From sequence record MH243438.1: a DNA stretch of 64,000 nucleotides, one strand, 5' to 3'. Position 1 is the stretch's first letter. Every line of letters begins with the position of its first letter. The DNA comes from Escherichia phage vB_EcoM_NBG1. Below are positions 2,335 through 14,763 of the stretch, in pieces. The translations under genes and the position numbers were made by a program. The notes below the pieces were generated by a model. The model made no database searches. It saw only the letters and a list, made by a program, of their open reading frames with translations, and was not told where the DNA came from.

Positions 2335-2368
2335 AATACCTCCCACGTTTATAGGAGGTATTTATTAC

Positions 2369-2827
2369 TTATAGTAGGGTAGTGAGTACCTTATATAACG
2401 ATTTGCCCATCACATATTCCCATTGAGAAGGTTTAATTAAAGCGAATGCATCAAATTCAGGAATCTGTCGTCCGTCTGGGAATGTATGATAGGAATTACA
2501 AACACTGTTTCTGAATTGCTCGTGCTCTACAGGGATGGTATATAGGAACAGATGAATATTCTTATTGTCTGAGTAATGATGTTCACCTAGGTCTTTCAGG
2601 AAGGCAGGGTCGTATTGTGTAAACCCAGTTTCTTCTTCGCATTCACGAATAGCGGCTTCAATAGGAGATTCGCCAGGTTCGACACGGCCTTTAGGAATAT
2701 CCCACCTATGAGCTAATGCACCTTTAGAACGAGAACCAGTTACACGCCCCATGAATAATTCTTTATCTTCGGTAAGGAAAATAATACCGGCTGATAGTTC
2801 TTTCACTTTATTTTTCTTACTCATCAT
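2369..2827 (-). CDS. nudE: Nudix hydrolase
   Basis: Nudix box G-x5-E-x7-REC-EEETG (GRVEPGESPIEAAIRECEEETGF); position after e as in T4 e.1. Confidence 0.85.
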   Translation of the reverse strand: MMSKKNKVKELSAGIIFLTEDKELFMGRVTGSRSKGALAHRWDIPKGRVEPGESPIEAAIRECEEETGFTQYDPAFLKDLGEHHYSDNKNIHLFLYTIPVEHEQFRNSVCNSYHTFPDGRQIPEFDAFALIKPSQWEYVMGKSLYKVLTTLL

Positions 2828-3053
2828 CTCGGTCCCATGATTTGGCCATTAATTCGGACATAAATTCTTCAATGCGCGTTTCTTTAGATGGACTTTCACT
2901 ATTAGAGACCGCAAGTTTGTAATCTGCAATAGGACAGAACATATCAAGGTCCATATTAAGGTCGTCTTTGATTTTTTCTTCTGACACATCTTTATCGTAT
3001 GTGTACAGATAACTATCACATGATTCTGATTTAATGTAAATTGCTATACTCAT
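2817..3053 (-). CDS. hypothetical protein
   Basis: ORF with internal ATG 3053 (MSIAIY) 9 nt after AGGA; ATGA overlap with upstream gene stop. Confidence 0.5.
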   Translation of the reverse strand: MSIAIYIKSESCDSYLYTYDKDVSEEKIKDDLNMDLDMFCPIADYKLAVSNSESPSKETRIEEFMSELMAKSWDRDDE

Positions 3054-3541
3054 CTCAAATTCCTGCATTCGGTAATAAAACGTTCAACTTCATTATTCTT
3101 GGCCTTTATCTTGTCTTTACGTTCCTGTAAACTACTTTTAACAAGATTAATAATGATGCCTACAGTACCGCCGCCAATGATGCCGCCAACAACACTTATG
3201 ATAATAGATGCTAATAAGATAGCAATAATATCAACAAAACCGAAAGAACTCACCTTAGTACTAAAAAACCATACCGACGGTACAAATATAATCCATCCTG
3301 TTATCCATTGGCACTTATTGAAAAACTTTTCAAGCTCAGCTTGAGTTGTTCGTATTACTTCATCGATAGGTTGATATCCATTAATGTATCTGTTCACGAT
3401 AATACCTGCTGGCTGGTCGATTTTAAATTCTTGGCAAATATGTTTCACTAAGTAGGATGGACATCCTGTCCAATCTACTGAATAGTATGAAATACCTTCG
3501 TTGCCATCGTCTATATTAGACCAATATGTTTTGTTAATCAT
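3050..3541 (-). CDS. hypothetical membrane protein with C-terminal FITECR tail
   Basis: Two hydrophobic segments (WITGWIIFVPSVWFF; FVDIIAILLASIIISVVGGIIGGG); C-terminal ...ERFITECRNLR. Confidence 0.55.
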   Translation of the reverse strand: MINKTYWSNIDDGNEGISYYSVDWTGCPSYLVKHICQEFKIDQPAGIIVNRYINGYQPIDEVIRTTQAELEKFFNKCQWITGWIIFVPSVWFFSTKVSSFGFVDIIAILLASIIISVVGGIIGGGTVGIIINLVKSSLQERKDKIKAKNNEVERFITECRNLR

Positions 3542-4227
3542 TACCAGCCTTCCATAGGGAATTCCAGATAAACTTGAGCATTGACACGAATTTCATTGGT
3601 AATCTTTTTAACTCGGTCTGTATTACGAGATACACGTCCGAACCAACGCCATCCGTTACTAATTGCACGAGAACCAGTGTGCCATGTTTGCCAATCAAAC
3701 TGAAGAAGAGTACGATCTGGAGCTTCCCATTTCTCTAGTTCACCTTTTTCAATTTTTTCGAGGACTTCTTTGTGCCACTGGCGATAGATAAGTTCGCCAT
3801 CAGGAATCTGACTGAACTCTGCAGTTCCTGTTGCAAAATGAGTAGGACACACGTCAGCGTTAACAAGACCAAGAATATGTTCAGAATGGTAACGAGGGTT
3901 GTCATAGTCAGGTTGTCCTGCAGTAATAAAGTGTTGACCAACTGGAATATCAGGGCGAGGAACATCATCATGGTGGTATCCAGGAATAGCAGGATACCAA
4001 CCAGGCATCAGCATATGAACCCGAGAATCAAATACAACATGTTGATTAGTCCAATCAATTGGGAGATTGGCAATAAAGCTACGAGTGATTGAGCCACCAT
4101 TATCCCAAGCAAAACCCAAATCACAATTAAAGAACATTGGTTCATTTTTGATTCGGTCATTTTGTACGTTATGTGCAAAACTACCAACTGCACGAGCTTG
4201 ACTATTAAAAGTTTTAGAACTATTCAT
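3541..4227 (-). CDS. hypothetical protein, possible Fe(II)/2-oxoglutarate dioxygenase-like
   Basis: 228 aa; H85-H86-D87 ... H183 ... R198-V-S pattern resembles HxD...H...RxS triad; not verified by any search. Confidence 0.3.
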   Translation of the reverse strand: MNSSKTFNSQARAVGSFAHNVQNDRIKNEPMFFNCDLGFAWDNGGSITRSFIANLPIDWTNQHVVFDSRVHMLMPGWYPAIPGYHHDDVPRPDIPVGQHFITAGQPDYDNPRYHSEHILGLVNADVCPTHFATGTAEFSQIPDGELIYRQWHKEVLEKIEKGELEKWEAPDRTLLQFDWQTWHTGSRAISNGWRWFGRVSRNTDRVKKITNEIRVNAQVYLEFPMEGW

Positions 4228-4228
4228 A

Positions 4229-4534
4229 TTATTTTCCTCGACATTCTTTAATGAAATTTTCTAGATTGGTAGATTCAATAGCTTTTTTACGAGCTTCTGC
4301 ATGTTCTTCTTCAGACAATTTACATTTATAATTAACCCAGACATTATGGTCGAAACTAGTCGTGGCATATAATAACAATGCTCCAACGAATAGCAAAAAC
4401 GGCGATAAGAATACAAAACCAGGAACACCATCCATATCGTAAGCCTTTTGTAATACTGCAACAGAAAGAGCTGCGTAAAAAGGTGATGCAAATATTGTTA
4501 AAAGACCAATTCGGTTGGTTTCGCCTAATTTCAT
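4229..4534 (-). CDS. hypothetical small membrane protein with C-terminal ENFIKECR tail
   Basis: Two hydrophobic segments; C-terminal ...LENFIKECRGK; SD GAGGAGAA upstream; 1-nt spacer to next gene. Confidence 0.55.
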   Translation of the reverse strand: MKLGETNRIGLLTIFASPFYAALSVAVLQKAYDMDGVPGFVFLSPFLLFVGALLLYATTSFDHNVWVNYKCKLSEEEHAEARKKAIESTNLENFIKECRGK

Positions 4535-4592
4535 AATATTCTCCTCATGTTTTAATAGGACTACTATAATATATCCCTATCAGTTTGTACAC
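4535..4592 (-). promoter_or_regulatory. early promoter/stem-loop cassette (GTGTAC -35 variant, TATAAT/TATAGT -10, ATAGG...CCTAT inverted repeat)
   Basis: Minus-strand reading: GTGTACAAACTGATAGGGATATATTATAGTAGTCCTATTAAAACATGAGGAGAATATTATG. Confidence 0.55.
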
Positions 4593-4793
4593 TTATTTTG
4601 ACATTTCTTCGATGTCACGACGATACCCATCACGAACTTCACGAAGAGCTTCAAGGCCACACATAGGCTCGATACCAGTAATGTGAACTTGATTAATCTG
4701 ATACTCTACATCTTCTAACTGAGCGAAAACATAACGACGTTCTGCTGCACAACCGGGTTTAGCTTTACCGAAACGTTTATTCAAAGTAGTCAT
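4593..4793 (-). CDS. hypothetical protein
   Basis: Internal ATG 4793 (MTTLNKRFGK) preceded by GGAG; cassette upstream. Confidence 0.5.
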   Translation of the reverse strand: MTTLNKRFGKAKPGCAAERRYVFAQLEDVEYQINQVHITGIEPMCGLEALREVRDGYRRDIEEMSK

Positions 4794-4873
4794 TTTTATA
4801 TCTCCATTCACTCATTTGTTTTGATAGGTCTATAGTATCAACAACTACAGACCTTGTAAACTGTTTTGTGAAA
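4794..4873 (-). promoter_or_regulatory. early promoter/stem-loop cassette
   Basis: Minus-strand: CACAAAACAGTTTACAAGGTCTGTAGTTGTTGATACTATAGACCTATCAAAACAAATGAGTGAATGGAGATATAAAAATG; GGTCT...AGACC inverted repeat. Confidence 0.55.
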
Positions 4874-5830
4874 TTATTTGAAAGGTTTTACCATATGAAA
4901 GTTTTGTTTGAAACGCTTGACGTAATCGTCGTGTCCTAAGCTTTGGTACATACTTACTACTTTGCTATAATTTTCCCAAGCGAACTCACGGAACCATCCT
5001 GATGTGATTGATGTACAGACCTTTTCAAGGGCCATCATAAAACTATCACGTGGATGGATTTTAAAGTCGTTAGGAATCTGTGAACGTTCAAGAGCTAATA
5101 CACAAGCTTCTTCATATACACCGGCTAATTTAACCATTTCTGGTAATGATTTGAACTTCTCGCGTGATGTCATAACTTCTGAGCCTTCTTTCATATAAAA
5201 CTTATAAGCAGGCTGGTCAGTTAGTGCAATGGCTTCATGAATAGTATCATGGTCATATGTATAGATGTCATCTTTAAAGAACGCACTTTTAGAAGTGTCA
5301 AGAACTGGGTGAGCATAATTCAAGGTTTCTTTCTGGCGTTTCAGCATAATTTCAGTAAGTTCATCGTTCAGTGTAACACCTTTACCACGAAGATACTGAA
5401 TATGATTCATAGTCTTTAAAAAGAATGGATTATTTTTCTTGAAACGATGAGACATCTTAATTGCAAGACATATCTCGGGAGTTGCCCAGTAAAACCCGTT
5501 CAAACGGTCTTTAGTCAAATTTTTCTTGGCGTATTTTAAAAGGTCATAAGAAGACGTGAAATCTTCAGGAGTGAGTTCACCAACTAATTCACGGACATTA
5601 GTGATTGCCGGAACAATATATGCTTCAAAATGAGTTTCGCGTCCATTATGGAAGCATTTGAAAACTTGGACGTCAGGGTTATCTTGGTGAACGTATACAC
5701 CCATCATTTGATTTTTGAATGCATTCCAAGAACATTGGTCCGCAATAAAATCCCAATCACTATTTTTGATAGCGCTAGAATCAATAAGACCATGATAGTG
5801 AAGTGCACGAGAACCAATAACTAACATCAT
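4874..5830 (-). CDS. hypothetical protein, possible nucleotidyltransferase fold
   Basis: 318 aa; N-terminal VIGSRALHYHGLIDSSAIKNSDWDFIA resembles GS...DxD of Pol-beta-type NTases but spacing is atypical; SD GAGGAA. Confidence 0.3.
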   Translation of the reverse strand: MMLVIGSRALHYHGLIDSSAIKNSDWDFIADQCSWNAFKNQMMGVYVHQDNPDVQVFKCFHNGRETHFEAYIVPAITNVRELVGELTPEDFTSSYDLLKYAKKNLTKDRLNGFYWATPEICLAIKMSHRFKKNNPFFLKTMNHIQYLRGKGVTLNDELTEIMLKRQKETLNYAHPVLDTSKSAFFKDDIYTYDHDTIHEAIALTDQPAYKFYMKEGSEVMTSREKFKSLPEMVKLAGVYEEACVLALERSQIPNDFKIHPRDSFMMALEKVCTSITSGWFREFAWENYSKVVSMYQSLGHDDYVKRFKQNFHMVKPFK

Positions 5831-5855
5831 AATAATTTCCTCGAATTTAGATTAC

Positions 5856-6095
5856 TTAAATTTCACGACATGCGATATTATATTCATCCCAGAGGTCATC
5901 ATGTGAAGCCTCTACCAATGGAACGATTGTACCGTTTATGTCTTCATTATAAGGGCAAATTGTACAGTGCGCATCTTCGAATCGGATGCCTTTGTGTTCA
6001 GATTTTTTATAACGCATATCGAATATCTTTGCAAACTTTTCACGAGTAATAGTTTTAGCAACCACTTTGGTTCCGATACTTTCGTAATAAATCAT
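5856..6095 (-). CDS. hypothetical protein
   Basis: Internal ATG 6095 (MIYYESIG) 8 nt after GGAG; contains HCTICPY; C-terminal ...NIACREI. Confidence 0.5.
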   Translation of the reverse strand: MIYYESIGTKVVAKTITREKFAKIFDMRYKKSEHKGIRFEDAHCTICPYNEDINGTIVPLVEASHDDLWDEYNIACREI

Positions 6096-6157
6096 TGTGG
6101 ACTCCATTTGTTTTGATAGGACTACTATAACATAGCCCTATCTTGTTGTAAACTGTT
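6096..6157 (-). promoter_or_regulatory. early promoter/stem-loop cassette
   Basis: Minus-strand: AACAGTTTACAACAAGATAGGGCTATGTTATAGTAGTCCTATCAAAACAAATGGAGTCCACAATG; -35 GTTTAC, -10 TATAGT, 18-nt spacer. Confidence 0.6.
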
Positions 6158-6355
6158 TTAGCAAGAATAACTAGATGATACCCAGCCTTGAACAGTGATA
6201 CTATTGTGGGATAATGAGATCGCGTCCTGGAGATTCAGACCTGCGTTATCTTCAATCCATAATGTAACTTCTTCGCGTTCTTCTGTTGCAATTTGGAACA
6301 GGTTTTCCAGAGCAGCTACTGCCGTACGTACAGCACAATCTAATTCACGAGACAT
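6158..6355 (-). CDS. small protein, paralog family with C-terminal GWVSSS..C
   Basis: 65 aa ending ...VQGWVSSSYSC; third of three tandem paralogs. Confidence 0.55.
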   Translation of the reverse strand: MSRELDCAVRTAVAALENLFQIATEEREEVTLWIEDNAGLNLQDAISLSHNSITVQGWVSSSYSC

Positions 6356-6364
6356 ATTGTTTCC

Positions 6365-6637
6365 TTAGCAAGTGTGAGAAGATGCGACCCAACCACCAGT
6401 TTCGAGGCTCAGGTTGTAGTCGTATTGGTAAACGTCAGCCCATTCAGCATAGCCGTTTTTTGTACAACGTTCAAGATCGGCTTTAAGATGTCCGGGTGAA
6501 TGATAGGTTCCACCCATACCATAAGCTGGATACAAGTCGAATGTTGTGTTTTGTTTATCAGCAATTTCTTTGGCAGCCTCAATAGCTGCATAGATTTTTG
6601 CTACAGCTTCAGCCAGTTCGGTTTGTTCTTTAGACAT
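6365..6637 (-). CDS. small protein, paralog family with C-terminal GWVASS..C
   Basis: 90 aa ending ...ETGGWVASSHTC; junction TGCTAAGGAAACAATATG to next gene. Confidence 0.55.
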   Translation of the reverse strand: MSKEQTELAEAVAKIYAAIEAAKEIADKQNTTFDLYPAYGMGGTYHSPGHLKADLERCTKNGYAEWADVYQYDYNLSLETGGWVASSHTC

Positions 6638-6646
6638 AATGATTCC

Positions 6647-6952
6647 TTAGCACAACGCAGAAGACGAAACCCAAGCACCTTCAGTAATAACGTAACCGTT
6701 ACCTTCACGCTTAACATCGCCACCATTATTTTCAATTTCATCTTTCATCCACTGGGATACGATTTCACCCTTAGGATAATAAGTACGACCACTACCATAA
6801 TCACCTACAGAAAATGATACAGCATATTGGTCTGCGATCTTTGTTGCTTCTTCTTCGATACGTTCAGCTTGATTCAGAAGTTTATAAATTGCATCTGAAG
6901 CGGATTTGGCATCATTAAACTCTGGTACTTTAATTTCAATAATCTTACTCAT
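6647..6952 (-). CDS. small protein, paralog family with C-terminal AWVSSS..C
   Basis: 101 aa ending ...TEGAWVSSSALC; junction TGCTAAGGAATCATTATG. Confidence 0.55.
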   Translation of the reverse strand: MSKIIEIKVPEFNDAKSASDAIYKLLNQAERIEEEATKIADQYAVSFSVGDYGSGRTYYPKGEIVSQWMKDEIENNGGDVKREGNGYVITEGAWVSSSALC

Positions 6953-7308
6953 TTTCTACATTCCTTAATAAAGTTTTCGATTGTTTCATTTTCACGTTTA
7001 GCTAGGAGTTCATTATAACTAATCATTTGAGAAGCGTAAACCTTTTTATTTTTCTTGTTATGGTTTATAAAATCGTAGTAAAAATAGACCACAGTACAAA
7101 ATGATGCGATGGATGCAAAGGCTTGGGTATACCGTAAGTCCTGCCATTGGTCTGTGAATCCACCGGTATTCCCTATAAATCCTAACACAACTCCGTCAAT
7201 AAGAAATCCAACTAATCCAAAGGCAAATCCCATGCCAATACTCATAATAAAAATTAGAATGTTCTCGCCGAGAGAAGGCCGAACAGTTAAGAGTTTAGGT
7301 TTTTGCAT
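6949..7308 (-). CDS. hypothetical membrane protein with C-terminal ENFIKECR tail
   Basis: Hydrophobic segments (ILIFIMSIGMGFAFGLVGFLIDGVVLGFIG; FASIASFCTVVYFYY); C-terminal ...IENFIKECRK. Confidence 0.55.
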   Translation of the reverse strand: MQKPKLLTVRPSLGENILIFIMSIGMGFAFGLVGFLIDGVVLGFIGNTGGFTDQWQDLRYTQAFASIASFCTVVYFYYDFINHNKKNKKVYASQMISYNELLAKRENETIENFIKECRK

Positions 7309-7682
7309 CTTATTTCCTTAACGAATTCCATAGCTTCTTCGTATTCGTACTTTTTAACAGCTTCGTCATACTGAGCTTGGGCTTTTGCGCACTGAACTTT
7401 CCATTCGCGTACTCGAGCTCTATAATGACGTCCTTGGTACCAATATCCCACCCAGTTAATAGGCATTAATAAAAATGGCACAATAAACGACCCGGCTATA
7501 ATAAGTAAAAACACTGCATCAGACGATATAACTTCACTAGAATCTAAAACAGCTCCTATAATCATAAAGATTAAAAATGCTAAAGCTAAAATAGGGCCAA
7601 ATAGTACTTCGTTTGGGATTAATTTACGTTTGTATTCGTATGCCCAGGGCTTAATTGGTTGATAAAGGGTTGGCTTTGACAT
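7287..7682 (-). CDS. hypothetical membrane protein with degenerate C-terminal EFVKEIRC tail
   Basis: Start moved to ATG 7682 (MSKPTLYQ); two hydrophobic segments; 3' end overlaps next gene start by 22 nt. Confidence 0.5.
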   Translation of the reverse strand: MSKPTLYQPIKPWAYEYKRKLIPNEVLFGPILALAFLIFMIIGAVLDSSEVISSDAVFLLIIAGSFIVPFLLMPINWVGYWYQGRHYRARVREWKVQCAKAQAQYDEAVKKYEYEEAMEFVKEIRCKNLNS

Positions 7683-8253
7683 ATTCTCTACATTCCATAA
7701 TAAATTGCTCAAGGATTAAATTGTTAGTGAAATTAGGACTAACAACCATAGTTTCATAAAGCGCATCAATAGCACTTAAAGCATCAACTCTCTTAAGCAA
7801 AGGCTTGCCTTCATACATAGTTTCAGAATCGACGATTAAAGTGAAGTAGTATTTTTTATTATTGACCAGAACTTCTGTATCAATATAAAACATGTTAGAC
7901 CTCAGAAGCTTATCTCTAAAACCATAATAATCTTTAGAGCGTTCGCTGATATATTCCCATTCAGTGTTTAAACAACAAACAGACCATGTAGGAGCAACGA
8001 AATCGGTGAATCTAATATCATGGTCTGCAACTAGTTTAGCAATAGCTCCGATATCATGAATCATAATACCTGGGGTTAATAAAGATTTTCTGCTATGGCT
8101 AGCCGTTTTCTCAGTAGTCTCATAAGAAGACGACCAGTACCATTTACGTCCAGTTGCAACATATCGTAATGAATCAACTAAAGACGTAGGTGGATTTACC
8201 TTATCTCGGAACTCTTCGAACATTGAGTCAATATCATTATTTTGGTTTCGCAT
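7651..8253 (-). CDS. hypothetical protein with C-terminal QFIMECRE motif
   Basis: Start at ATG 8253 (MRNQNN) 6 nt after AAGGAG; no obvious TM segment; motif 13 aa from the C-terminus. Confidence 0.5.
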   Translation of the reverse strand: MRNQNNDIDSMFEEFRDKVNPPTSLVDSLRYVATGRKWYWSSSYETTEKTASHSRKSLLTPGIMIHDIGAIAKLVADHDIRFTDFVAPTWSVCCLNTEWEYISERSKDYYGFRDKLLRSNMFYIDTEVLVNNKKYYFTLIVDSETMYEGKPLLKRVDALSAIDALYETMVVSPNFTNNLILEQFIMECREYVKANPLSTN

Positions 8254-8270
8254 GTTAACTCCTTTATTAT

Positions 8271-8294
8271 CCAAAAGGAGGACCGGAGTCCTCC
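8271..8294 (-). terminator. rho-independent terminator-like hairpin (GGAGGAC-loop-GTCCTCC then UUUU)
   Basis: 7-bp GC-rich stem followed by T-run on the minus strand, 9 nt downstream of stop at 8303 and ~18 nt before the next ATG. Confidence 0.55.
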
Positions 8295-8302
8295 GTATTA
8301 TT

Positions 8303-8896
8303 TTATTTCAAAGAGTTAATATATTCTTGTACATCAGCAGAAGTGGTTTCGACACCAGCTGGAGTGCCATTGAACGTTTCAACACGAGTCAGAGTGTCTT
8401 CGATATCAACCTTAGTCAGTGCAGCGATTTCAATTACATCATCAGCCGTAGAGATACCAAGGGCATTGGCTGCTCGAGTTTCACGAATGTATTCGAGTTT
8501 GATTGCCAGATTCTGACGAGCATCATCAAGTTCAACCACCTTACGAGCAATTTCAATTCGCATAGCGGCATACCCGTCAGCTTTTGTATTAAGTTGTTCG
8601 GCAGTTCGACGATACAGAAGACCAAGCTTAGCATGCATAGTAACATCTTGTCCTTCAGCCAGGAGCTTACGAATTTCACGTTCCTTAGAAGCGGCTTGCT
8701 TGTTCTTTTCATTAACAAGTTCGCGAATACGTTTTTCTTCATTAATAGATTTAACAGAAGCCGTTTTTAGTTCTTTGATTTGGGTAATCAACTTATCTGC
8801 AGCTGCGTTATACTGTTCTTCGACAGTCAGATTTTTAGCCATAGCAGTACCCAGTTTAGTGCGGATGAATTCAACAAGTTTCTTCAGTGTGTTCAT
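8303..8896 (-). CDS. coiled-coil protein, possibly PspA/IM30-like
   Basis: 197 aa, highly charged helical heptad-like sequence; start at ATG 8896 (MNTLKK) after AAGGT; family assignment is a guess. Confidence 0.3.
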
Positions 8897-8967
8897 ATTA
8901 TTACCTTTCAATTGGTGGTTTATTATCCAACGAGAGCATTATACTCTGCTCTCAAGAGTTTGTAAAT
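8897..8967 (-). promoter_or_regulatory. sigma70-like early promoter with stem-loop (TTTACA-N17/18-TATAAT; GAGAGCA/TGCTCTC inverted repeat around -10)
   Basis: Minus-strand: ATTTACAAACTCTTGAGAGCAGAGTATAATGCTCTCGTTGG... Confidence 0.55.
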
Positions 8968-9194
8968 TATTTTTTAATCAAATTGACATAAAACTCGGCG
9001 TCTTCCGGGTGCATGCCTTCGCAGTATTCTTCAACCATGAACTTCTTAACAGCTTCATAAGGACCACTCAGATTAAGCTCAGTTGTCCAGAACTTGGAAT
9101 CTTGGGCTGAATCGATACGAACTTCAGGGTGTCGGTTGCGAATAACTTCTTCGGTGTATTCATAATCAACGACATCAATACTAACTTTAGCCAT
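8967..9194 (-). CDS. hypothetical protein
   Basis: 75 aa; SD AGAGGAAA; cassette upstream. Confidence 0.5.
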   Translation of the reverse strand: MAKVSIDVVDYEYTEEVIRNRHPEVRIDSAQDSKFWTTELNLSGPYEAVKKFMVEEYCEGMHPEDAEFYVNLIKK

Positions 9195-9240
9195 TTTGTT
9201 TTCCTCTTGATTTGATGTGATTACTATAACATAAACTTAC
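9195..9240 (-). promoter_or_regulatory. early promoter cassette (TTTACA -35, TATAGT -10)
   Basis: Minus-strand: ATTTACATCTAAGTAAGTTTATGTTATAGTAATCACATCAAATCAAGAGGAAAACAAAATG. Confidence 0.5.
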
Positions 9241-9405
9241 TTAGATGTAAATTATTTCAACGTCACCTTTAGCTGCTTTATAACCTTCAGCCCAAGATAC
9301 AACAGAGTTTTTATCCGAGGATTCAAATTCAGGCATTGGACTTTCACCAATATTCACACAGTATGTTTCTTCATTTTCATCGAACCAAATAATTAAAGTA
9401 GTCAT
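9241..9405 (-). CDS. hypothetical small protein (54 aa), not in the ORF track
   Basis: ATG at 9405 preceded by GAGGAG; translation MTTLIIWFDENEETYCVNIGESPMPEFESSDKNSVVSWAEGYKAAKGDVEIIYI; cassette upstream. Confidence 0.45.
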   Translation of the reverse strand: MTTLIIWFDENEETYCVNIGESPMPEFESSDKNSVVSWAEGYKAAKGDVEIIYI

Positions 9406-9473
9406 TTTGTTTACTCCTCTGTAGTTGATAAGTCTATAGTATCACCGTCCTTGGTGCTTGTACATCGTTATTT
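9406..9473 (-). promoter_or_regulatory. early promoter/stem-loop cassette
   Basis: The 44-nt string tcattttgtttactcctctgtagttgataagtctatagtatcac is repeated exactly at 9402-9445 and 44981-45024. Confidence 0.55.
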
Positions 9474-9779
9474 TTAATTTTTCCAACTTAACAACTTGTA
9501 GTGTCCTTCATTCATACATGGTTTATCCCAAGAAATACTAATATATGATTCACCGTCAATAGAAGTCGCCGGGTTTTTCTCTACCGTAAGACCTTCACTT
9601 TCCAGCCATTCAATAGTATTTGCGCATAAATCGGAAGAACACCTCATCGGAAACCTGCAAGATTTTTCACCTTTAGCTGCAGTGTTATACATCTTTTCTA
9701 AAATACGCTTTTGCACGTTTTTAAAAATAGTTTCAGCAGATTCTTCAGATTTTTTATTCAGTTCAGTGTAAAGACTCAT
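9474..9779 (-). CDS. hypothetical protein
   Basis: 101 aa; SD GAGGAAAA; cassette upstream. Confidence 0.5.
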   Translation of the reverse strand: MSLYTELNKKSEESAETIFKNVQKRILEKMYNTAAKGEKSCRFPMRCSSDLCANTIEWLESEGLTVEKNPATSIDGESYISISWDKPCMNEGHYKLLSWKN

Positions 9780-9840
9780 AATATTTTCCTCATGTTTTTA
9801 TAGGTCTATAGTAACACATCTAGGGAAGAAGTAAACAACT
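9780..9840 (-). promoter_or_regulatory. early promoter/stem-loop cassette
   Basis: Minus-strand: GTTTACTTCTTCCCTAGATGTGTTACTATAGACCTATAAAAACATGAGGAAAATATTATG. Confidence 0.55.
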
Positions 9841-9868
9841 TTATGAAATATTTTTATGCCCTAGATGC

Positions 9869-9897
9869 CAAAAAGCCCCAACCTTTCGGAAGGGGCT
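9869..9897 (-). terminator. rho-independent terminator (AGCCCCUUCC-GAAA-GGUUGGGGCU then UUUUU)
   Basis: Long GC stem with GAAA tetraloop followed by U-run on the minus strand, closing the tRNA/small-ORF transcription unit. Confidence 0.6.
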
Positions 9898-9934
9898 ATG
9901 CCTTGCGGCAACCTTGTCGGGGTTCCACCTGCTA

Positions 9935-10205
9935 AGGCAAGTGTTTGTACGAAACGCCGGGATTCGAACCCGGTTATTAAGCAGTTGACGCTACTCAATA
10001 TTTTTAAAAGGCCATATCTCGACCATATCCGAACGTTCCGTCAAAAACGCTACTCGGCTTACGGCAAATATATTTCCTCGAATCGATAATTCTGTGCGCC
10101 GTTTCTGCTGTGATGTAAGGGGATATTAACAAATCGTAAAGATTTATTAAGACCAGTCCTTACTCAGGGAACATCAGTCCGACGACTTACCGGTAGCGAC
10201 CCGGC
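9935..10205 (-). ncRNA. non-coding stretch with tRNA-like T-arm (CCGGGUUCGAAUCCCGG); candidate stable small RNA or tRNA remnant
   Basis: No ORF with SD; perfect T-arm motif at ~9955-9975 but no acceptor-stem partner found; T4 encodes small stable RNAs next to its tRNAs. Confidence 0.25.
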
Positions 10206-10208
10206 TTC

Positions 10209-10553
10209 TTATTTTGGCATATCATCAATTTGCTCTCGACGCCGACGCCATAGATTAATCGCTTCATTGGCACATTCTGCGTTTGGTATATGACGGCAGT
10301 AATATAATGATTCGCGTTTCTGGAACCGATGTTGCAACGGGATTTCGTTTAAAAGGTCTTTACGGTCAAAGTATTCAAAACTAGTTAACCCAGAACGGTT
10401 TTTAATGAACTTCCAATGGCCGAATTCATTTTGAACATAGATGTAATCTGCATGTTGGTATAACAAATTAATCAATCGGTCTGAAATAACTGTATCATTT
10501 TCGTTAAAATAAAACGTTAAATCATGAACTACCAAATAAATATTGCCTTTCAT
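10209..10553 (-). CDS. hypothetical protein
   Basis: Start moved to ATG 10553 (MKGNIY) after GAGGA, so the gene no longer overlaps the tRNA. Confidence 0.5.
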   Translation of the reverse strand: MKGNIYLVVHDLTFYFNENDTVISDRLINLLYQHADYIYVQNEFGHWKFIKNRSGLTSFEYFDRKDLLNEIPLQHRFQKRESLYYCRHIPNAECANEAINLWRRRREQIDDMPK

Positions 10554-10571
10554 ATTTTCCTCACTTAAAGT

Positions 10572-10648
10572 TGGCCGAGACAGAAGGATTCTAACCTTCA
10601 ACCTACGGATTAGAATTCCGTTGCTCTATACAATTGAGCTATGCCTCG
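10572..10648 (-). tRNA. tRNA-Arg (anticodon UCU)
   Basis: Hand-folded cloverleaf: 7-bp acceptor stem (one GU), D-stem GCUC/GAGC, anticodon stem ACGGA/UCCGU with loop AUUCUAA, T-arm GAAGG-UUAGAAU-CCUUC, encoded CCA. Confidence 0.8.
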
Positions 10649-10654
10649 AATATA

Positions 10655-10728
10655 TGACCCAGACCAGATTCGAACTGGTAACCTTTCCCTTATGAGGGGA
10701 CTGCTGCTAACCATTGAGCTACAGGGCC
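10655..10728 (-). tRNA. tRNA with CAU anticodon (Met, or Ile if lysidine-modified)
   Basis: Acceptor stem 6/7 bp, perfect T-arm ACCAG-UUCGAAU-CUGGU, loop CUCAUAA; D-arm and anticodon stem weaker (3-4 bp); no encoded CCA. Confidence 0.6.
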
Positions 10729-10805
10729 TAAATAACTTTCTATTATGAAAGGCACTTTAGAGCACCTTTGGTAATAGAGGGTAGATTAATAATAACACAT
10801 AATTC

Positions 10806-11321
10806 TTAAAGCAAATCAATCATTTTAACAGTCGGCAAAACAATTTCTTCTTCAATATAAGCGAATTCAACACGTTCAACTACACGCAAGAAATCATAGT
10901 CGTAGTATTCGGAAGCATAGCCAAGAATATCAATAAGTCCTTGAGATATCTCATCGCCTTTCACAAAGAACAGGTCGAATACGCGGGCTTCGTCTTCTTC
11001 AGATTTATCACCAAGGTCTACTTCGATACCAAAGACCTTTTTAATAAATTCCGGTTGGAGTTGGTCTGAGAACAGTCCTTCAACCAAGTATTCATAGATT
11101 AAAAGCGAGCAATCACTGAATGGTGTATTACCACAATAACGTTCGGCTTTAGTGCTAGAATGACGACTCTTAAATTTCTTCAAGAGATATTTAAACTGTT
11201 GGAGCTCATGCTCTTCTACACCAAATAATGTTTTGGTTTTATAGTTGTCGCCGTCATTTTCCCAAGTAGTGACATCAATTACGTAACCCTTAGGAATTGT
11301 ACTGCCTAAACAAATATTCAT
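10806..11321 (-). CDS. hypothetical protein
   Basis: 171 aa ORF with ATG start, immediately upstream of the tRNAs. Confidence 0.5.
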   Translation of the reverse strand: MNICLGSTIPKGYVIDVTTWENDGDNYKTKTLFGVEEHELQQFKYLLKKFKSRHSSTKAERYCGNTPFSDCSLLIYEYLVEGLFSDQLQPEFIKKVFGIEVDLGDKSEEDEARVFDLFFVKGDEISQGLIDILGYASEYYDYDFLRVVERVEFAYIEEEIVLPTVKMIDLL

Positions 11322-11325
11322 TTAC

Positions 11326-11616
11326 TCACCGTACCATATTAATGTAATTATATTCAATGCAACGTAATTTCAAAGGATTCTTGAAAATATCATATTCAAG
11401 AGGGCCTTTTTCTGTTTCAATAAAGAAATCAAAGTTAACTGTGTTAAATTTATCGTCTTCACAAAATAATTTAACCTGTGAAGATGAACGGTCGATATAA
11501 ACCTTTTCAACCTCAAAGTTGGTCAGAATACCGTAGTCATCGACTAGTGCTTTAGCTGCACGTTGATCGCTTTCGTATCCGTTCTCAATAGATGACACTT
11601 TAGCATAAAGAATCAT
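11326..11616 (-). CDS. hypothetical protein
   Basis: 96 aa; ATGA overlap with upstream gene stop. Confidence 0.5.
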   Translation of the reverse strand: MILYAKVSSIENGYESDQRAAKALVDDYGILTNFEVEKVYIDRSSSQVKLFCEDDKFNTVNFDFFIETEKGPLEYDIFKNPLKLRCIEYNYINMVR

Positions 11617-11975
11617 GAGTGTTCCACCACTTCAAAGGTATGAGCATCAACAATATGATACCAGTCAAAATTTTCTTCTGCGTTTTTATAAATTTCACGA
11701 AGAGCCTCAACAGTTTTTCCTGTAGCAACAAGGTCGTCAATACCGCCAAGAGGATAACAGTCGTAACCAGCAAACAGAAGGAAATTAACAGTTTCTGTAG
11801 GTTCTGGATGCAGAACACCGTTATCGTCTACCACTTCAAAGAAAGTGTAAGAAGGAGTACAAGTTTTAATCCAAGCCCATGCTTGAGCTGCTGAATCAAA
11901 TGGTCTGCGTATCAAACGACAATCAGGGTCTTTAGAAGGATTTGCTTCAAAATCAGCATATACGTGATATTTCAT
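11613..11975 (-). CDS. hypothetical protein
   Basis: Start at ATG 11975 (MKYHVY) after AGGTGA; coupled to upstream gene (TAAaATG). Confidence 0.5.
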   Translation of the reverse strand: MKYHVYADFEANPSKDPDCRLIRRPFDSAAQAWAWIKTCTPSYTFFEVVDDNGVLHPEPTETVNFLLFAGYDCYPLGGIDDLVATGKTVEALREIYKNAEENFDWYHIVDAHTFEVVEHS

Positions 11976-11976
11976 T

Positions 11977-12162
11977 TTACTCACCTTTTGCAATTTTATC
12001 CATAACGATAGCGATTAAACCGATTAGAAATGCTACTACCAATGAGATAGAATTTTCTGTTGTTGTCAGTAGTCCACAAATGAATCCTACAAACATCGAA
12101 AAACTAAAAGCCATTGAAGCAATTACTACAGCAACATTACGAATCAGTTCAGCGCGTTTCAT
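11977..12162 (-). CDS. hypothetical small membrane protein
   Basis: Start at ATG 12162 (MKRAELIRN) after GGAG; two hydrophobic segments. Confidence 0.5.
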   Translation of the reverse strand: MKRAELIRNVAVVIASMAFSFSMFVGFICGLLTTTENSISLVVAFLIGLIAIVMDKIAKGE

Positions 12163-12232
12163 TTTATTTCTCCATTTACTCATTTGTTTTGATAGGACTA
12201 CTATAACATAGTCCTATCAGCATGTAAACTAC
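12163..12232 (-). promoter_or_regulatory. early promoter/stem-loop cassette with 9-bp inverted repeat ATAGGACTA/TAGTCCTAT
   Basis: Minus-strand: GTTTACATGCTGATAGGACTATGTTATAGTAGTCCTATCAAAACAAATGAGTAAATGGAGAAATAAAATG. Confidence 0.6.
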
Positions 12233-12520
12233 TTACAGAAGAGTTTTTGCAATAATTTTAAGCTGAGCTACAGAAATATGCTTAGCTTTAAACAGTGCAG
12301 TCTCTTCGGCCGGAGAGATAACAATAGTAGCGCCGTCTTTCTTAGCAGACCATCCATCCCCTAAGTAAACAGTACCTTTTACTTCTTCACCGTCAACCAG
12401 ACTAATCATTGGTTTACCCTCACGTCCTTTATTTGCTTTAATAACTTCGGAAGTAAGGGTTGCTTCGGTCAGAGTAGAAACGTTAGCAACAGGTGATATA
12501 AATTCTTTATAGGTTTTCAT
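12233..12520 (-). CDS. internal-protein-like small protein (MKTYKEFISP...), in the T4 ipI position
   Basis: Capsid-targeting-type N-terminus; lies next to 57B as ipI does in T4; body not recognised. Confidence 0.55.
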   Translation of the reverse strand: MKTYKEFISPVANVSTLTEATLTSEVIKANKGREGKPMISLVDGEEVKGTVYLGDGWSAKKDGATIVISPAEETALFKAKHISVAQLKIIAKTLL

Positions 12521-12597
12521 TTTATTTCCTTGAGGTTGTTTATTTGATAGGATGATAGTAACACACCATCATCCTTATGTAAACTGTTTTGTGAAAA
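12521..12597 (-). promoter_or_regulatory. early promoter/stem-loop cassette (AGGATGAT/ATCATCCT inverted repeat)
   Basis: Minus-strand: CACAAAACAGTTTACATAAGGATGATGGTGTGTTACTATCATCCTATCAAATAAACAACCTCAAGGAAATAAAATG. Confidence 0.55.
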
Positions 12598-13283
<686 letters not shown>

Positions 13284-13287
13284 TTTA

Positions 13288-14022
13288 TTACCTTAAGATT
13301 GTTTCAATTTTAGAATAAAGCTCTTCTAAAGAGCCGTCGTTTGTAATAACTAAATCGCCTTCTTCAATAGGCAACCCAGCTTCTGTAATATGTTTATCAG
13401 TGGATTCCGTACCAGAGCGAACCACATGAATAACTGTAGCACCCATCGCTCTAGCGGTTTCCATTTCATGGACTTGGCGTGTATCGGTCACAACATAGTA
13501 ATCGAAATCACTTCCAATATAATCCATATAGTTTAATGCAAAAAGTTTAACCCAATACATACGGTCAAATAAATTAACGACAACATCCGTACCGAGGGCT
13601 TGCATAAGACGGCGGATTGACCATGTGTCGTTGATATTATTTATAGCTTCACGCAGGGCTTCATATGGTTTAATATCTAGATACGAATATCCACCTTCTA
13701 ACGATGATAATACTTTAACATTATTAATCGGTAAATATTGACTTTGCAAATAAATTAGCGCTTCTTCCAATAATTCAATAACATCCAACTTATTGAGATT
13801 TAATGGTGTTTCACGGTCGTATCCAATGCCTTCAAAGTATTCGTATTTCAACTCTGTGAATACATCAGGATTTTCAGCATGTTTACGCCCCCAGGCTATT
13901 GCTAGAGCGTCTTTAATCGGATACGCCAATTGGTATTTTACGGATTTAAAGTTTGAATTGATGTAATCAGCAGTGGTGTCTTTACCACTACGTTTGATGC
14001 CACTTAAAAAGATTAGCTCCAT
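13288..14022 (-). CDS. 1: deoxynucleoside monophosphate kinase
   Basis: Near-identical to recalled T4 gp1 (IFLSG.KRSGKDTTAD...). Confidence 0.9.
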   Translation of the reverse strand: MELIFLSGIKRSGKDTTADYINSNFKSVKYQLAYPIKDALAIAWGRKHAENPDVFTELKYEYFEGIGYDRETPLNLNKLDVIELLEEALIYLQSQYLPINNVKVLSSLEGGYSYLDIKPYEALREAINNINDTWSIRRLMQALGTDVVVNLFDRMYWVKLFALNYMDYIGSDFDYYVVTDTRQVHEMETARAMGATVIHVVRSGTESTDKHITEAGLPIEEGDLVITNDGSLEELYSKIETILR

Positions 14023-14076
14023 AGGTTTTTCCTCATATAATTTATGAGTGATTATAACATACGGAGCTAGAAGCGA

Positions 14077-14661
14077 TTAACGCAAGGAAGGGTGTCTAGA
14101 AATGGATTTAGATTCGACTGCTTGACGTGGTTGTTGAGATACAATGACTTCACCATCCTTTTCTATCGTCATATACGCATAGTGAATAGTTGCTACGCAC
14201 GTAACGGCAGGGTCAGAGTCTTCGGTGTAACTAAATTCAATTTCACTCAAATCAGAAATCCATGGTTTATAGAAATTCGCCGTCAAAACTACTTCTGTCT
14301 TATTGTTATTTAAAATGTGCAAAGTAACAAACTCAGGACCATCGGAGTGGGCCGTATTATGTCCGGTTATATAGTTATTAGTGCTGAGCATCCATTTATA
14401 CATGTTCAACCAGGACGTCATGTCTTCATCAACTATAAATCGTACAATAAAAGGGTCATATTCAAATGTGGTGCCTGCACGCATTGCACGTCCTAACCCC
14501 ATCGTGCCTGTCACAGTTTCAACAACAGGAATTCTCACACCTGGCAATGGAGCTGTTTGGGCATTGAGCACAAAACCTGAAGTTCGTGTACTATCTGGGA
14601 TATCCACAACAAAGTTTGTTATATTTGTTTGGTTAAAAATCTGTCTCGTTGGACGAGTCAT
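14077..14661 (-). CDS. 3: tail completion / sheath stabilizer protein gp3
   Basis: Synteny (1-3-2-4 as in T4); start moved to ATG 14661 because the track start is GTG. Confidence 0.75.
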   Translation of the reverse strand: MTRPTRQIFNQTNITNFVVDIPDSTRTSGFVLNAQTAPLPGVRIPVVETVTGTMGLGRAMRAGTTFEYDPFIVRFIVDEDMTSWLNMYKWMLSTNNYITGHNTAHSDGPEFVTLHILNNNKTEVVLTANFYKPWISDLSEIEFSYTEDSDPAVTCVATIHYAYMTIEKDGEVIVSQQPRQAVESKSISRHPSLR

Positions 14662-14763
14662 AAGCACCTCAAAAACGCTTTAATAAAAATGCAGTATAAT
14701 GGTTTTAGGTCTCTTCCATTAATCCGGTTCAACAGAATATCAGAAGAACGGAAGAGAATAGAA

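Follow-up and report, generated by a model that had tools for sequence, protein, structure and literature searches.

Repeated cassettes of predicted early promoters in an RB69-like phage and their association with gene gain and loss

Thirteen cassettes on one strand

The window analysed here is a 64,000-nucleotide stretch of Escherichia phage vB_EcoM_NBG1 (MH243438.1). It belongs to an RB69-like Mosigvirus and covers the ipII/III-e-tRNA-ipI hyperplastic region, being 95–97% identical to Mosigvirus genomes across ipII/III-denV-e-tRNA-ipI-57B. The initial annotation listed 13 copies of a promoter and stem-loop cassette, and all of them are present on the minus strand where it placed them. Early promoters predicted in RB69 are given as Pe.

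762–840, minus strand: cassette 1; -35 GTTTACG, -10 TATAAT (796–801), no -10 hairpin; leader, SD and ATG (764) of a 104-aa internal-protein-like ORF; Pe:64193
1507–1580, minus strand: cassette 2, upstream of denV; -10 TACTAT (1537–1542), SD with GGAG; no hairpin straddling the -10, another weak fold from -35 to -10; Pe:64934
4532–4605, minus strand: cassette 3, upstream of ORF 4229–4534; GTGTACA, -10 TATAGT (4563–4568), SD with GGAG; hairpin GATAGGGAT/AGTCCTAT over the -10; Pe:67959
4791–4880, minus strand: cassette 4, upstream of small ORF 4593–4793; TTTCACAAAACAGTTTACA, -10 TACTAT (4832–4837); hairpin AGGTCTGTAG/CTATAGACCT, -15.5 kcal/mol
6096–6170, minus strand: cassette 5, upstream of ORF 5856–6098; -10 TATAGT (6124–6129); hairpin GATAGGGCTAT/ATAGTCCTATC, -16.0 kcal/mol; Pe:69254
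8894–8980, minus strand: cassette 6, upstream of e.6; ATTTACA, -10 TATAAT (8938–8943); hairpin GAGAGCA/TGCTCTC over the -10; Pe:72069
9192–9262, minus strand: cassette 7, upstream of frd.3 (8967–9194); -35 (9246–9251) inside the end of the upstream ORF, -10 TATAGT (9223–9228), no hairpin; Pe:72354
9399–9485, minus strand: cassette 8, upstream of ORF 9241–9405; ATGTACA, -10 TACTAT (9436–9441), no hairpin; 47-nt core plus leader identical to cassette 12; Pe:72567
9777–9850, minus strand: cassette 9, upstream of ORF 9474–9779; 16-nt spacer, -10 TACTAT (9808–9813), no -10 hairpin, canonical terminator about 30 nt upstream; probable counterpart of Pe:72936
9865–9896, minus strand: intrinsic terminator GCCCCTTCC-GAAA-GGTTGGGGC plus T5, just upstream of cassette 9
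12160–12245, minus strand: cassette 10, upstream of tRNA.4 (11977–12162); -10 TATAGT (12200–12205), SD with GGAG; strongest hairpin, TGATAGGACTAT/GTAGTCCTATCA, -17.7 kcal/mol; Pe:76459
12518–12605, minus strand: cassette 11, upstream of ipI (12233–12520); TTTCACAAAACAGTTTACA, -10 TACTAT (12555–12560); hairpin AGGATGATGGTG/TACTATCATCCT, -15.4 kcal/mol; Pe:77187
44978–45060, minus strand: cassette 12, upstream of 89-aa ORF 44715–44984; -10 TACTAT (45015–45020), no hairpin, no co-oriented gene upstream
61052–61125, minus strand: cassette 13, between alt and a downstream 97-aa ORF (alt.-3 in RB69); -10 TACTAT (61084–61089), weak hairpin GGATG/CATCC; Pe:125323 by coordinate arithmetic

The cassette runs from an A-rich tract through GTTTACA, 17 nt, TGn-TAYWRT and a NNNCCTATCAAAACAA-like leader to SD and ATG. 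The -10 types are those originally reported (TACTAT in seven copies, TATAGT in four, TATAAT in two), and the extended -10 TGn is found in 11 of the 13. The proposed spacer of 17–18 nt, counted from TTTACA, is 17 nt in 12 copies but 16 nt in one. SD and ATG do follow every copy, each opening a correctly oriented ORF of 54–197 aa. Two details required correction: CACAAAACA, said to precede the copies often, does so in only two of 13, and the range 9195–9240 given for cassette 7 omits its own -35.

A strict pattern, TTTAC-N17/18-TAYWRT, matches 14 times in the 64-kb window, 14/14 on the minus strand, against a shuffle expectation of 1.57 (14 reached in 0/100 shuffles). A PWM over -48..+16 retrieves precisely the 13 cassettes in the window, with leave-one-out scores of 8.1–54 bits; the runner-up scores 7.3 on the minus strand and the plus-strand top 5.5. 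The copies align well past the generic AT-rich promoter features to which the likeness might have been confined, the discriminator/leader CCTATCAAAACAA is conserved among them, and the top direct-repeat families of the window are the cassette itself. Upstream, core and leader modules are common to copies in a mosaic pattern (repeat families D1–D3, D11). The reported 44-nt identity is true and longer, an exact 47-nt duplicate (9399–9445 = 44978–45024) between cassettes 8 and 12, whose loci lie 35 kb apart. A further site at 47859–47887 (Pe:112451 of Nolan) has a good UP/-35/-10 but no shared leader, SD or ATG, and was rejected as another copy.

Eleven of the 13 copies correspond to RB69 early promoters predicted in Nolan et al. 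2006, ten of them by coordinates; the copy at 45015 was assigned through its alignment with the stretch between g23 and g24 of RB69 that holds Pe:109605. In T4, the same type of cassette occupies syntenic sites upstream of ipI, trna.4, e.8, denV and regB. The consensus aAAA-GTTTACA-N17(TGn)-TAYWRT with C at -3/-2 is the published T4/RB69 early consensus: in both sets GTTTAC lies at -36..-31, the -40s are A-rich, a GT-rich/TGn stretch precedes a TAnnnT -10, and C stands at -3..-1 (Miller 2003, Nolan 2006, Hinton 2010). Nothing essential differs, although the published descriptions mention neither a -10 inverted repeat (0 in Nolan 2006) nor a shared leader. We infer promoter function because of this match together with orthology, and start sites, promoter strength and timing are likewise predictions from sequence and orthology. 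Host sigma70 RNA polymerase would bind the UP-like A-tract, the GTTTACA -35, the TGn extended -10 and the TAYWRT -10, and transcription would start ~7 nt downstream of the -10, at the A of CCTATC. Each early promoter thus predicted is fused to a short, unstructured A-rich leader, an SD and the initiation codon of a small early gene.

Indels at cassettes

Indel junctions were compared against ten Mosigvirus relatives. As the initial annotation had anticipated, cassette-ORF units are the indel boundaries in this set and chimeric cassettes are left at the junctions; most ORF-sized indels break within a cassette or at its edge. RB69, in which cassette 3 is the crossover partner of cassette 4 (4580/4855), is without window positions 4581–4854 and their ORF and keeps one chimeric cassette. 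A second cassette-by-cassette event joins cassettes 7 and 8 in ATK47 (9216/9399; chimera verified). At the cassette 6 -35 (8958–8972) a 306-bp ORF is inserted in SA79RD and JN02, and a replacement breakpoint coincides with the edge of cassette 8 (9481). Three distinct events fall at cassette 9 (9792–9870), where 9792–9896 is an insertion and deletion hotspot among the ten relatives. Two different ORF insertions lie between duplicated cassettes at 12173–12235, the cassette 10 locus, as an extra ORF in FP43 (+332 bp) and in ATK47 (+373 bp, Ip7). Cassette 12 and ORF 44715–44984 are inserted between late genes 23 and 24 as a discrete module, missing from Tequatrovirus genomes. Among 150 Mosigvirus records, the cassette 13 locus is conserved and free of indels. 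Not all breakpoints are in cassettes: others lie in a terminator repeat or in the 5' end that internal-protein genes have in common; the terminator at 9865–9896 is doubled around a 154-aa ORF in F31, APCEc01, SA79RD and ATK47.

The copies could be alike only by functional constraint on promoters and leaders, with no gene shuffling and with indels that are simply intergenic. The most conserved columns are indeed known RNA polymerase contact elements (Hinton review), and gene-preserving indels must fall between genes, where cassettes hold about a third of the junctions. Under a fair null, with cassettes at 11 of ~34 gene junctions and several events at one hotspot, the indel-cassette association is moderately significant (roughly P = 0.03). 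However, the 47-nt identity between such distant loci takes in spacer and leader positions that are under no constraint, copies have modules in common as a mosaic, and the parental halves can be read in chimeric cassettes. In addition, the inserted ORFs of relatives lie between two near-identical cassettes, and crossovers inside cassette homology are seen for 5–6 events. We consider constraint without shuffling quite improbable.

Less probable still is a dedicated mobile element, with cassettes as its ends and a site- or structure-specific recombinase recognising the stem-loop (a mini-circle pathway). PeSL mini-circles were obtained by inverse PCR and a stem-loop-binding protein was speculated upon (Arbiol 2010), and the ORF-plus-cassette unit acts as a module here. 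Yet crossovers fall over the -35, spacer, start site or leader in different events, and no recombinase gene is associated with the cassette-ORF units. Copies without a hairpin also recombine: three of the six such copies have done so, hence the hairpin is not needed for shuffling. We see no indication of dedicated mobilisation machinery, and the terminator and the internal-protein 5' repeat serve equally as crossover sites. Such scattered crossovers, including those in non-cassette repeats, fit general homologous recombination.

The indels speak for general recombination at short homologies, which is the PeSL model (Arbiol 2010; Comeau 2014; Repoila 1994) in its T-even form. Many small early transcription units each carry a promoter of this kind, with 30–50 nt of near identity among copies, and the comparisons show that the phage's very active homologous recombination takes cassettes and other short repeats as crossover points. 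Crossing over between two copies removes, adds or exchanges the intervening ORF, and an intact chimeric promoter is left every time. Overall, the 13 repeats are very likely RB69-like T4-type early promoters with leader and ribosome site that double as recombination homologies. Their role as homologies for gene gain and loss is real, but already described for T4-type phages.

Relation to published PeSLs

The likeness to PeSLs first proposed for the cassettes holds in that A-rich tract, promoter, stem-loop, SD and ATG match the published elements, with a stem-loop in only about half of the copies; published stem-loops lie between -35 and -10 or overlap the -10. The RB49/phi1 PeSLs (Arbiol et al. 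2010) are likewise composites of ~70–100 bp reaching from an AT-rich tract to the ATG, concentrated in hyperplastic regions beside ORF indels between close relatives. They differ in their near-perfect TTGACA/TATAAT and GC-rich (polyG/polyC) stems, one shown to terminate transcription, whereas the present copies have a GTTTAC -35 and AT-rich stems (AGGNN/NNCCT). The copies are T-even-type elements built on T4 early promoters, and T-even elements were described as analogs, not homologs, of RB49 PeSLs (Arbiol et al. 2010).

The T4/PST PeSLs (Comeau 2014) and the T-even IP-locus elements (Repoila 1994) share the consensus TTTACW-N17-TAYWAT, the same loci (two internal-protein loci and the e-tRNA region) and the same proposal that IP genes and ORFans are shuffled when elements recombine with one another. 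A 43-bp direct repeat on either side of RB69ORF156c is recorded in the GenBank entry of ATK47. In T4/PST the stem-loops lie just upstream of the promoter (Comeau 2014), whereas here most straddle the -10; only the copy at 9808 has an upstream stem, and this is a true terminator. We found no cataloguing of the Mosigvirus set as PeSLs in searchable papers.

A hairpin across the -10 in a subset of copies

An inverted repeat around the -10 had been ascribed to each copy; it is present in only about seven of 13. Folding gave a significant -10 hairpin at 4563, 4832, 6124, 12200 and 12555 (z -3.8 to -5.5) and a weaker one at 8938 and 61084; none was found at 796, 9223, 9436, 9808 and 45015, and 1537 folds differently. 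The 5' arm lies in the spacer and the 3' arm over the -10/discriminator, ending at the start site. Own-spacer pairing exceeds that of chimeras in the window (P = 0.002–0.016). Of 99 non-redundant promoter clusters from IMG/VR and relatives, 16% have a hairpin at or below -10 kcal/mol, versus 1.6% of chimeras (~10-fold enrichment) and 1.1% of shuffles; roughly 15–25% of T4-type early promoters generally carry one. The position is sharply confined to -30..+5, with the peak in 36-nt windows spanning -36..+8; at least 15 distinct versions of -6..-1 are each matched by a spacer of complementary sequence, and main-register pairing counts are bimodal. Changes on both sides occur in 9 of 12 pairs, counts inflated by an alignment chosen for pairing. 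The hairpin genuinely exists in a subset, with compensatory variation, and selection on it is shown.

Hairpins are 3–4 times commoner at cassettes that coincide with the end of a co-oriented ORF, an association that drops to P = 0.08–0.2 in the high-confidence subset. They are also commoner with GGAG in the leader (70% versus 39%, P = 0.02), which could reflect common ancestry of leaders.

Enrichment at the ends of co-oriented ORFs would suit rho-independent terminators of the upstream gene. The SA79RD record carries 'terminator' features on the orthologous stems (WebGeSTer), and the RB49 PeSL211/210 stem-loop cut lacZ like rrnB T1 in a reporter assay (Arbiol 2010). However, the assayed stem is of the polyG/polyC type, unlike the AT-rich stems here (-8 to -18 kcal/mol), and canonical GC-rich, T-run terminators exist elsewhere in the region (8277–8294, 9865–9896). 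The present stems are followed by AUCAAAACAA, and none of 20 hairpin clusters has a U-tract 3' of the stem, which makes classical intrinsic termination unlikely.

The inverted repeat may instead act on DNA, forming a cruciform, or a single-strand hairpin, across the -10, discriminator and start site that would modulate open-complex formation, supercoiling sensitivity or early-promoter shut-off, a mechanism that according to reviews is not understood. In every case the 3' arm takes in -10..+1, exactly the stretch that melts when the open complex forms; many dyads have their centre close to -11; and the sense/antisense folding asymmetry is not robust, vanishing under strand-symmetric selection. 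On the other hand, the stem has no fixed register with respect to the -10 (pair-sum from -22 to -30), which is odd for precise promoter mechanics, and G-T wobbles, which weaken DNA hairpins, are common (32/249 pairs in the sense fold). The correlation with an upstream co-oriented ORF and downstream GGAG is not expected from a model confined to DNA, and most early promoters have no hairpin. We hold a DNA-level role to be doubtful.

Since the hairpin lies upstream of its own promoter's start, it can take RNA form only when transcription reads through from the upstream gene, and we infer that it acts on such read-through RNA. Most likely it would be a structure near the 3' end of the upstream cistron; because the stop codon directly adjoins the -35, such a structure has no space other than the promoter. 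It might act by attenuating transcription or, once RegB or RNase E has cut the A-rich leader or GGAG SD just downstream, as a barrier to 3' exonucleases. RB69 encodes RegB, and RegB cuts expose 3' ends to RNase II/R.

The REP/BIME elements of enterobacteria, short stem-loops that lie between genes at cistron 3' ends and lack a U-tract, are thought to stall 3' exonucleases and are also recombination substrates. Their likeness to the cassette hairpins is one of function only, with the protective role putative here and no sequence relationship, and the cassette hairpins, unlike REP/BIME, are embedded in a promoter.

Early-promoter cassettes in the hyperplastic region

More than 100 RB69-like Mosigvirus coliphages, F31, APCEc01, JS09, SA79RD and RB69 among them, are 95-97% identical to window positions 4400-12700. 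By the annotations of these relatives, the first 13 kb is a T4-type hyperplastic region (HPR) with all genes on the minus strand in the order ipII/ipIII-like - denV - e - nudE - e.2..e.6 - frd.3 - rnaC - tRNA-Arg/Met - tRNA.2-4 - ipI - 57B. The remainder of the window carries late structural genes and alt:

43094-44662, gp23, late structural gene
45086-46369, gp24, late structural gene
61113-63200, alt

Within the HPR, rnaC (species 1 RNA, annotated in ATK47 and T4) corresponds to a non-coding minus-strand stretch at about 9900-10200 with a tRNA-like 3' part and no Rfam match at the gathering threshold. At this threshold Rfam returned two tRNAs only from the whole window and no match at the cassettes. 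A MotA-box-like middle promoter (TTTGCTTTA, 12 nt, TATTAT) lies at 10789-10815 on the minus strand, 5' of tRNA-Met/tRNA-Arg, and its box overlaps the stop codon of ORF 10806-11321.

All 13 copies of the cassette (early promoter, leader, SD and ATG) listed in the initial annotation were found, all on the minus strand; we name them by the coordinates of their -10 elements (796, 1537, 4563, 4832, 6124, 8938, 9223, 9436, 9808, 12200, 12555, 45015 and 61084). Two details required correction: the range 9195-9240 assigned to one copy leaves out its -35 at 9246-9251, and CACAAAACA, described as often preceding the -35, was seen before two copies only. Anchored at the -10, the copies align beyond generic promoter features and yield the consensus aAAA.a-GTTTACA-a.ct..tagg..T.TGn-TAYWRT-agtCCTATCAAaacaa, followed by SD and ATG. 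The strict pattern TTTAC-N17/18-TAYWRT has 14 matches, every one on the minus strand, versus 1.57 expected (0 of 100 shuffles reach 14). A PWM built from the consensus columns recovers exactly the 13 copies (leave-one-out scores 8.1-54 bits; next-best minus-strand site 7.3 bits; plus-strand maximum 5.5), and the largest direct-repeat families of the window are the cassette. A generic sigma70 scan was uninformative in this AT-rich DNA (59 sites versus 47 expected).

The -35 is GTTTAC in nine copies and ATTTAC (twice), GTGTAC or ATGTAC in the rest, with an A-rich, UP-like aAAA.a consensus directly 5' of it. Twelve copies have a 17-nt spacer and one has a spacer of 16 nt; the -10 reads TACTAT, TATAGT or TATAAT, and an extended -10 (TGn) is present in 11/13. 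Every copy stands upstream of an ORF (54-197 aa) whose ATG is 21-35 nt from the predicted start site. The upstream gene ends with a stop codon that touches or overlaps the cassette -35. Eleven copies fall within the first 12.6 kb (the ipII/III-e-tRNA-ipI region), in agreement with the preference of PeSLs for hyperplastic regions and ORFan neighbors; the remaining two precede small early ORFs wedged in among late or core genes. The full composite of about 100 bp (AT-rich tract, promoter, -10 stem, SD and ATG) occurs in seven copies, one has an upstream terminator stem instead, and five are without any stem-loop. Two further early-promoter-like sites are present in the window:

47859-47887, minus strand, Pe:112451, strong UP/-35/-10, in or at the end of a coding sequence 5' of rnlB
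7012-7040, minus strand, Pe:70143

Both are sigma70-like, correspond to the RB69 Pe sites named (Nolan 2006) and lack the common leader, SD and ATG; hence the promoter motif by itself is not what repeats, and the unit is the promoter with its leader.

T4-type early promoters combine GTTTAC at -36..-31, an A-rich UP-like tract, a GT-rich/TGn segment and TAnnnT, and those of RB69 have C at -3..-1 (Nolan 2006; Hinton 2010). Judged by sequence, the cassette consensus is that of T4-type early promoters. The supplementary table of Nolan 2006 gives 58 predicted early promoters (Pe) in RB69, to which 11 of our 13 copies correspond, 10 by coordinates and 45015 by alignment. Nine of the 11 HPR copies, mapped onto RB69 with Blast, lie 42-48 nt from the 5' end of a listed site (Pe:64193, 64934, 67959, 69254, 72069, 72354, 72567, 76459 and 77187). 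Copy 61084 equals Pe:125323 by coordinate arithmetic, and 45015 aligns with the RB69 g23-g24 intergenic region that holds Pe:109605. Copy 4832 has no RB69 counterpart because its ORF is missing from RB69. The same cassette type precedes ipI, trna.4, e.8, denV and regB in T4, whose RefSeq record carries no annotated promoter features. We infer that the cassettes are active as promoters.

A hairpin across the -10 element

The initial annotation placed a short inverted repeat around the -10 of each copy, which holds for part of the set. The repeat is strong in 4563, 4832, 6124, 12200 and 12555 (z -3.8 to -5.5), and 8938 and 61084 have a weaker one. Copies 796, 9223, 9436, 9808 and 45015 have none, and 1537 folds differently. 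Across the window copies, a spacer pairs better with the -10/discriminator of the copy to which it belongs than with that of another copy (permutation test, P = 0.016 by stem length, 0.0024 by energy).

We extended the comparison with an IMG/VR scan for GTTTAC-N17-TAYWRT-N6-ATCAA (120 loci) and with a promoter collection obtained by a PWM ignoring the spacer and positions -6..-1 (219 unique sequences, 99 clusters). Hairpins of -10 kcal/mol or lower within -30..+6 were found in 16% of clusters versus 1.6% of chimeras and 1.1% of spacer shuffles (permutation test, P < 0.0002). In a sliding-window profile of 54 high-confidence clusters, hairpins peak sharply in 36-nt windows spanning -36..+8 (24-31% of clusters); they are nearly missing over -70..-13 and +1..+60, with a slight secondary rise at about -100..-55. 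The -6..-1 hexamer takes at least 15 different forms, each with a complementary spacer, and stem sequences differ; T4 and ATK47 add the variants GATGAGGTA/TACCTCATC and GATAGGGTA/TACCCTATC. The end of the 3' arm always falls within -2 to +6, and in the commonest register the counts of paired positions are bimodal across all promoters. Among promoters chosen for their pairing, 9 of 12 pairs have changes on both sides (40 cells versus 7.2 in shuffles), a count that the selection inflates. Given the enrichment, the position and the varied complementary stems, the hairpin is a position-specific trait under selection, carried by a subset of T4-type early promoters and over-represented in the window. 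A binding site for a dimeric sequence-specific repressor was considered and rejected, since arm sequences vary among copies while complementarity is kept.

The hairpin ends at the start site and is thus missing from the promoter's own transcript; an RNA form would exist only in read-through transcripts. The stem is followed by AUCAAAACAA, without a U-tract, and is unlike the canonical terminators at 8277-8294 and 9865-9896; a generic terminator scan misses the -10 hairpins because they have no T-run. The missing U-tract makes the 'rho-independent terminator' labels in the SA79RD record doubtful, and canonical intrinsic termination at these stems seems unlikely. Folding asymmetry between sense and antisense strands was tried as a way of separating RNA-level from DNA-level function and discarded: the first signal (P = 0.001) arose because the set had been selected on sense energy, and under strand-symmetric selection it vanished (P = 0.25-0.54).

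Hairpins are 3-4 times commoner in cassettes that mark the end of a co-oriented ORF (P = 0.02-0.09); in the high-confidence subset the direction is the same and the association suggestive only (P = 0.08-0.2). In the wider promoter sample they are also commoner where the leader contains a RegB-type GGAG (70% versus 39%, P = 0.02). GGAG followed by A-rich sequence, the motif of the RegB endoribonuclease, is found in seven of the 13 SD regions (1537, 4563, 4832, 6124, 9436, 12200 and 45015), and RB69 encodes RegB. Cuts by RegB open 3' ends to RNase II/R and induce RNase E/G cleavage in A-rich sequence. We prefer to read the hairpin as a 3'-proximal structure of the upstream cistron, which would serve as an attenuator or exonuclease block. 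In a more speculative RNA reading, the hairpin and the GGAG site some 20-30 nt downstream would form one unit: once the downstream cistron is inactivated by RegB or RNase E, the hairpin would cap and preserve the upstream one. A role at the DNA level is a less probable alternative, either in melting of the promoter or in the so far unexplained shut-off of early transcription; in its speculative form, the hairpin would let DNA topology or a structure-binding factor act on these promoters during shut-off. The approximately 10-fold enrichment, the position at -30..+5, the compensatory variation and the links to upstream ORFs and GGAG are compatible with both the RNA and the DNA reading. That the -10 hairpin is, in either form, a distinct selected regulatory element of a T4-type early-promoter subclass and not a degenerate terminator is a proposal we make tentatively, and we consider it rather doubtful.

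Gene exchange at cassettes and at other repeats

The suggestion that cassette-ORF units form indel boundaries was borne out for most ORF-scale events. We compared window positions 1-17701 with nine Mosigvirus relatives and RB69; cassettes make up 11 of about 34 gene junctions, and about 9 of 14 ORF-scale events fall at them, leaving chimeric cassettes.

Junctions at cassettes (window coordinates)
4580/4855, ORF 4593-4793 missing from RB69, a single chimeric cassette kept
8958-8972, 306-bp ORF insertion in SA79RD and JN02, at the -35 of copy 8938
9216/9399, ORF 9241-9405 missing from ATK47
9481-9519, 3' end of ORF 9474-9779 replaced in five phages, at the upstream edge of copy 9436
9842-9870, 9865-9896 and 9792-9870, copy 9808 or its immediate upstream flank, with one deletion, a 1.2-kb RB69 segment and ORF insertions of two different kinds
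12184-12235 and 12173-12175, FP43 +332 bp and ATK47 +373 bp (Ip7), at copy 12200

Against a conservative gene-junction null, the excess of events at cassettes reaches only moderate significance (P of about 0.03 in our own binomial estimate), and hotspots are reused. Chimeras were verified in ATK47 (9436 x 9223), in FP43 and ATK47 (12200) and in RB69 (4563 x 4832). By direct alignment, the single ATK47 cassette equals copy 9436 until TATCAA at the start site and copy 9223 beyond it, and copy 12200 matches the upstream FP43 copy on its left and the downstream FP43 copy on its right, with a shared core of about 45 nt. The g23-g24 ORF and its cassette (about 44663-45036) together form a discrete module, which Tequatrovirus genomes lack. 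Copy 61084 showed no indel among 150 genomes.

Other exchanges use repeats that are not promoters. At junctions 433/1059 (FP43, ATK47) and 12498-12524 (RB69 ORF156c) the crossover lies in another repeat family: five internal-protein-like genes share the 5' end AAAATGAAAACGTATAAAGAATTTAT (MKTYKEFI...), presumably a capsid-targeting leader. Its five sites are given below, followed by a repeated terminator:

402-427, minus strand, AAAATGAAAACGTATAAAGAATTTAT repeat
742-767, minus strand, AAAATGAAAACGTATAAAGAATTTAT repeat
1067-1092, minus strand, AAAATGAAAACGTATAAAGAATTTAT repeat
1827-1852, minus strand, AAAATGAAAACGTATAAAGAATTTAT repeat
12498-12523, minus strand, AAAATGAAAACGTATAAAGAATTTAT repeat
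9865-9896, minus strand, canonical terminator GCCCCTTCCGAAAGGTTGGGGC plus T5

Two copies of this terminator (10469-10500 and 11012-11043 of sequence L003) bracket the F31-type insertion of a 154-aa ORF, and RB69 has an additional exact copy elsewhere (sequence L131, position 2018), which argues that the repeated terminator acts as a recombination site. Further events off promoters comprise one in the tRNA cluster and two small intragenic deletions. Crossover points within cassettes are spread over the -35, spacer, start site and leader. This scatter, together with the use of other repeats, indicates that cassettes are shuffled by general short-homology recombination and not by a dedicated site-specific system; a site-specific mobilization mechanism was rejected on the same grounds.

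The identical 44-nt string reported for copies 9436 and 45015 is exact and extends to 47 nt (9399-9445 = 44978-45024). Gene conversion was considered for this pair and is not demonstrated by it: the RB69 ORF145c copy is identical to that of the window, and only the RB69 g23-g24 copy has three private changes, so the duplicate is old. Separately, the HY126 and JN02 orthologues of hairpin-less copy 9223 (L004, 9826, and L006, 10126, respectively) have the discriminator AGTCCTATC rather than AATCACATC; the three clustered changes turn it into an exact match of the 12200/6124 core, a pattern suggestive of patchy gene conversion between cassettes.

Relation to PeSL elements

The cassettes had been proposed to be promoter-early stem-loop (PeSL) elements, and their architecture, complete with a stem in about half of the copies, and their behavior match PeSLs, as a T-even-type analog. 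Comeau 2014 gives the promoter consensus TTTACW-N17-TAYWAT (T4/PST, nt-1/KVP40). As credited by Arbiol et al., Repoila 1994 placed such elements at two IP loci of T-even phages; the ATK47 GenBank record has a 43-bp direct repeat flanking an IP gene. Arbiol et al. describe the T-even elements as built on T4 early promoters, with stems that are weaker and AT-rich, and term them 'analogs, not homologs' of the RB49 PeSLs. On sequence grounds, the window contains exactly these analog elements. RB49 PeSLs have a TTGACA -35 and a GC-rich polyG/polyC stem, whereas the window cassettes have a GTTTAC -35 and AT-rich AGGNN/NNCCT stems. Since the RB49-specific features are absent, we file the cassettes as T-even-type PeSL-like early-promoter cassettes, outside the RB49 homology group.

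The importance of these results is mainly confirmatory: the shuffling phenomenon is already published and the promoters are already predicted in RB69. They extend the PeSL picture to a third T-even lineage, in which early promoters of the RB69-like accessory region double as transcription signals and as short homologies for swapping small, often anti-host genes, internal proteins and ORFans among them. Such swapping explains why Mosigvirus genomes that are otherwise 96% identical are mosaics in gene content. Annotators should label the intergenic repeats early promoters, and should not label their stems rho-independent terminators as in some records. The quantified evidence for selection on the -10-straddling hairpin is a modest addition, and this hairpin alone retains open scientific value.

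Other repeats were noted among the late genes. Positions 25282-25331 and 44669-44718 have in common a terminator-like hairpin, GGGAGNCTTCGGNCTCCC plus a T-run, after late genes, the second directly after gene 23. A tandem 15-nt coding repeat at 41104-41163, inside a late gene, is rich in GAT/GAA/GAC (an acidic D/E stretch).
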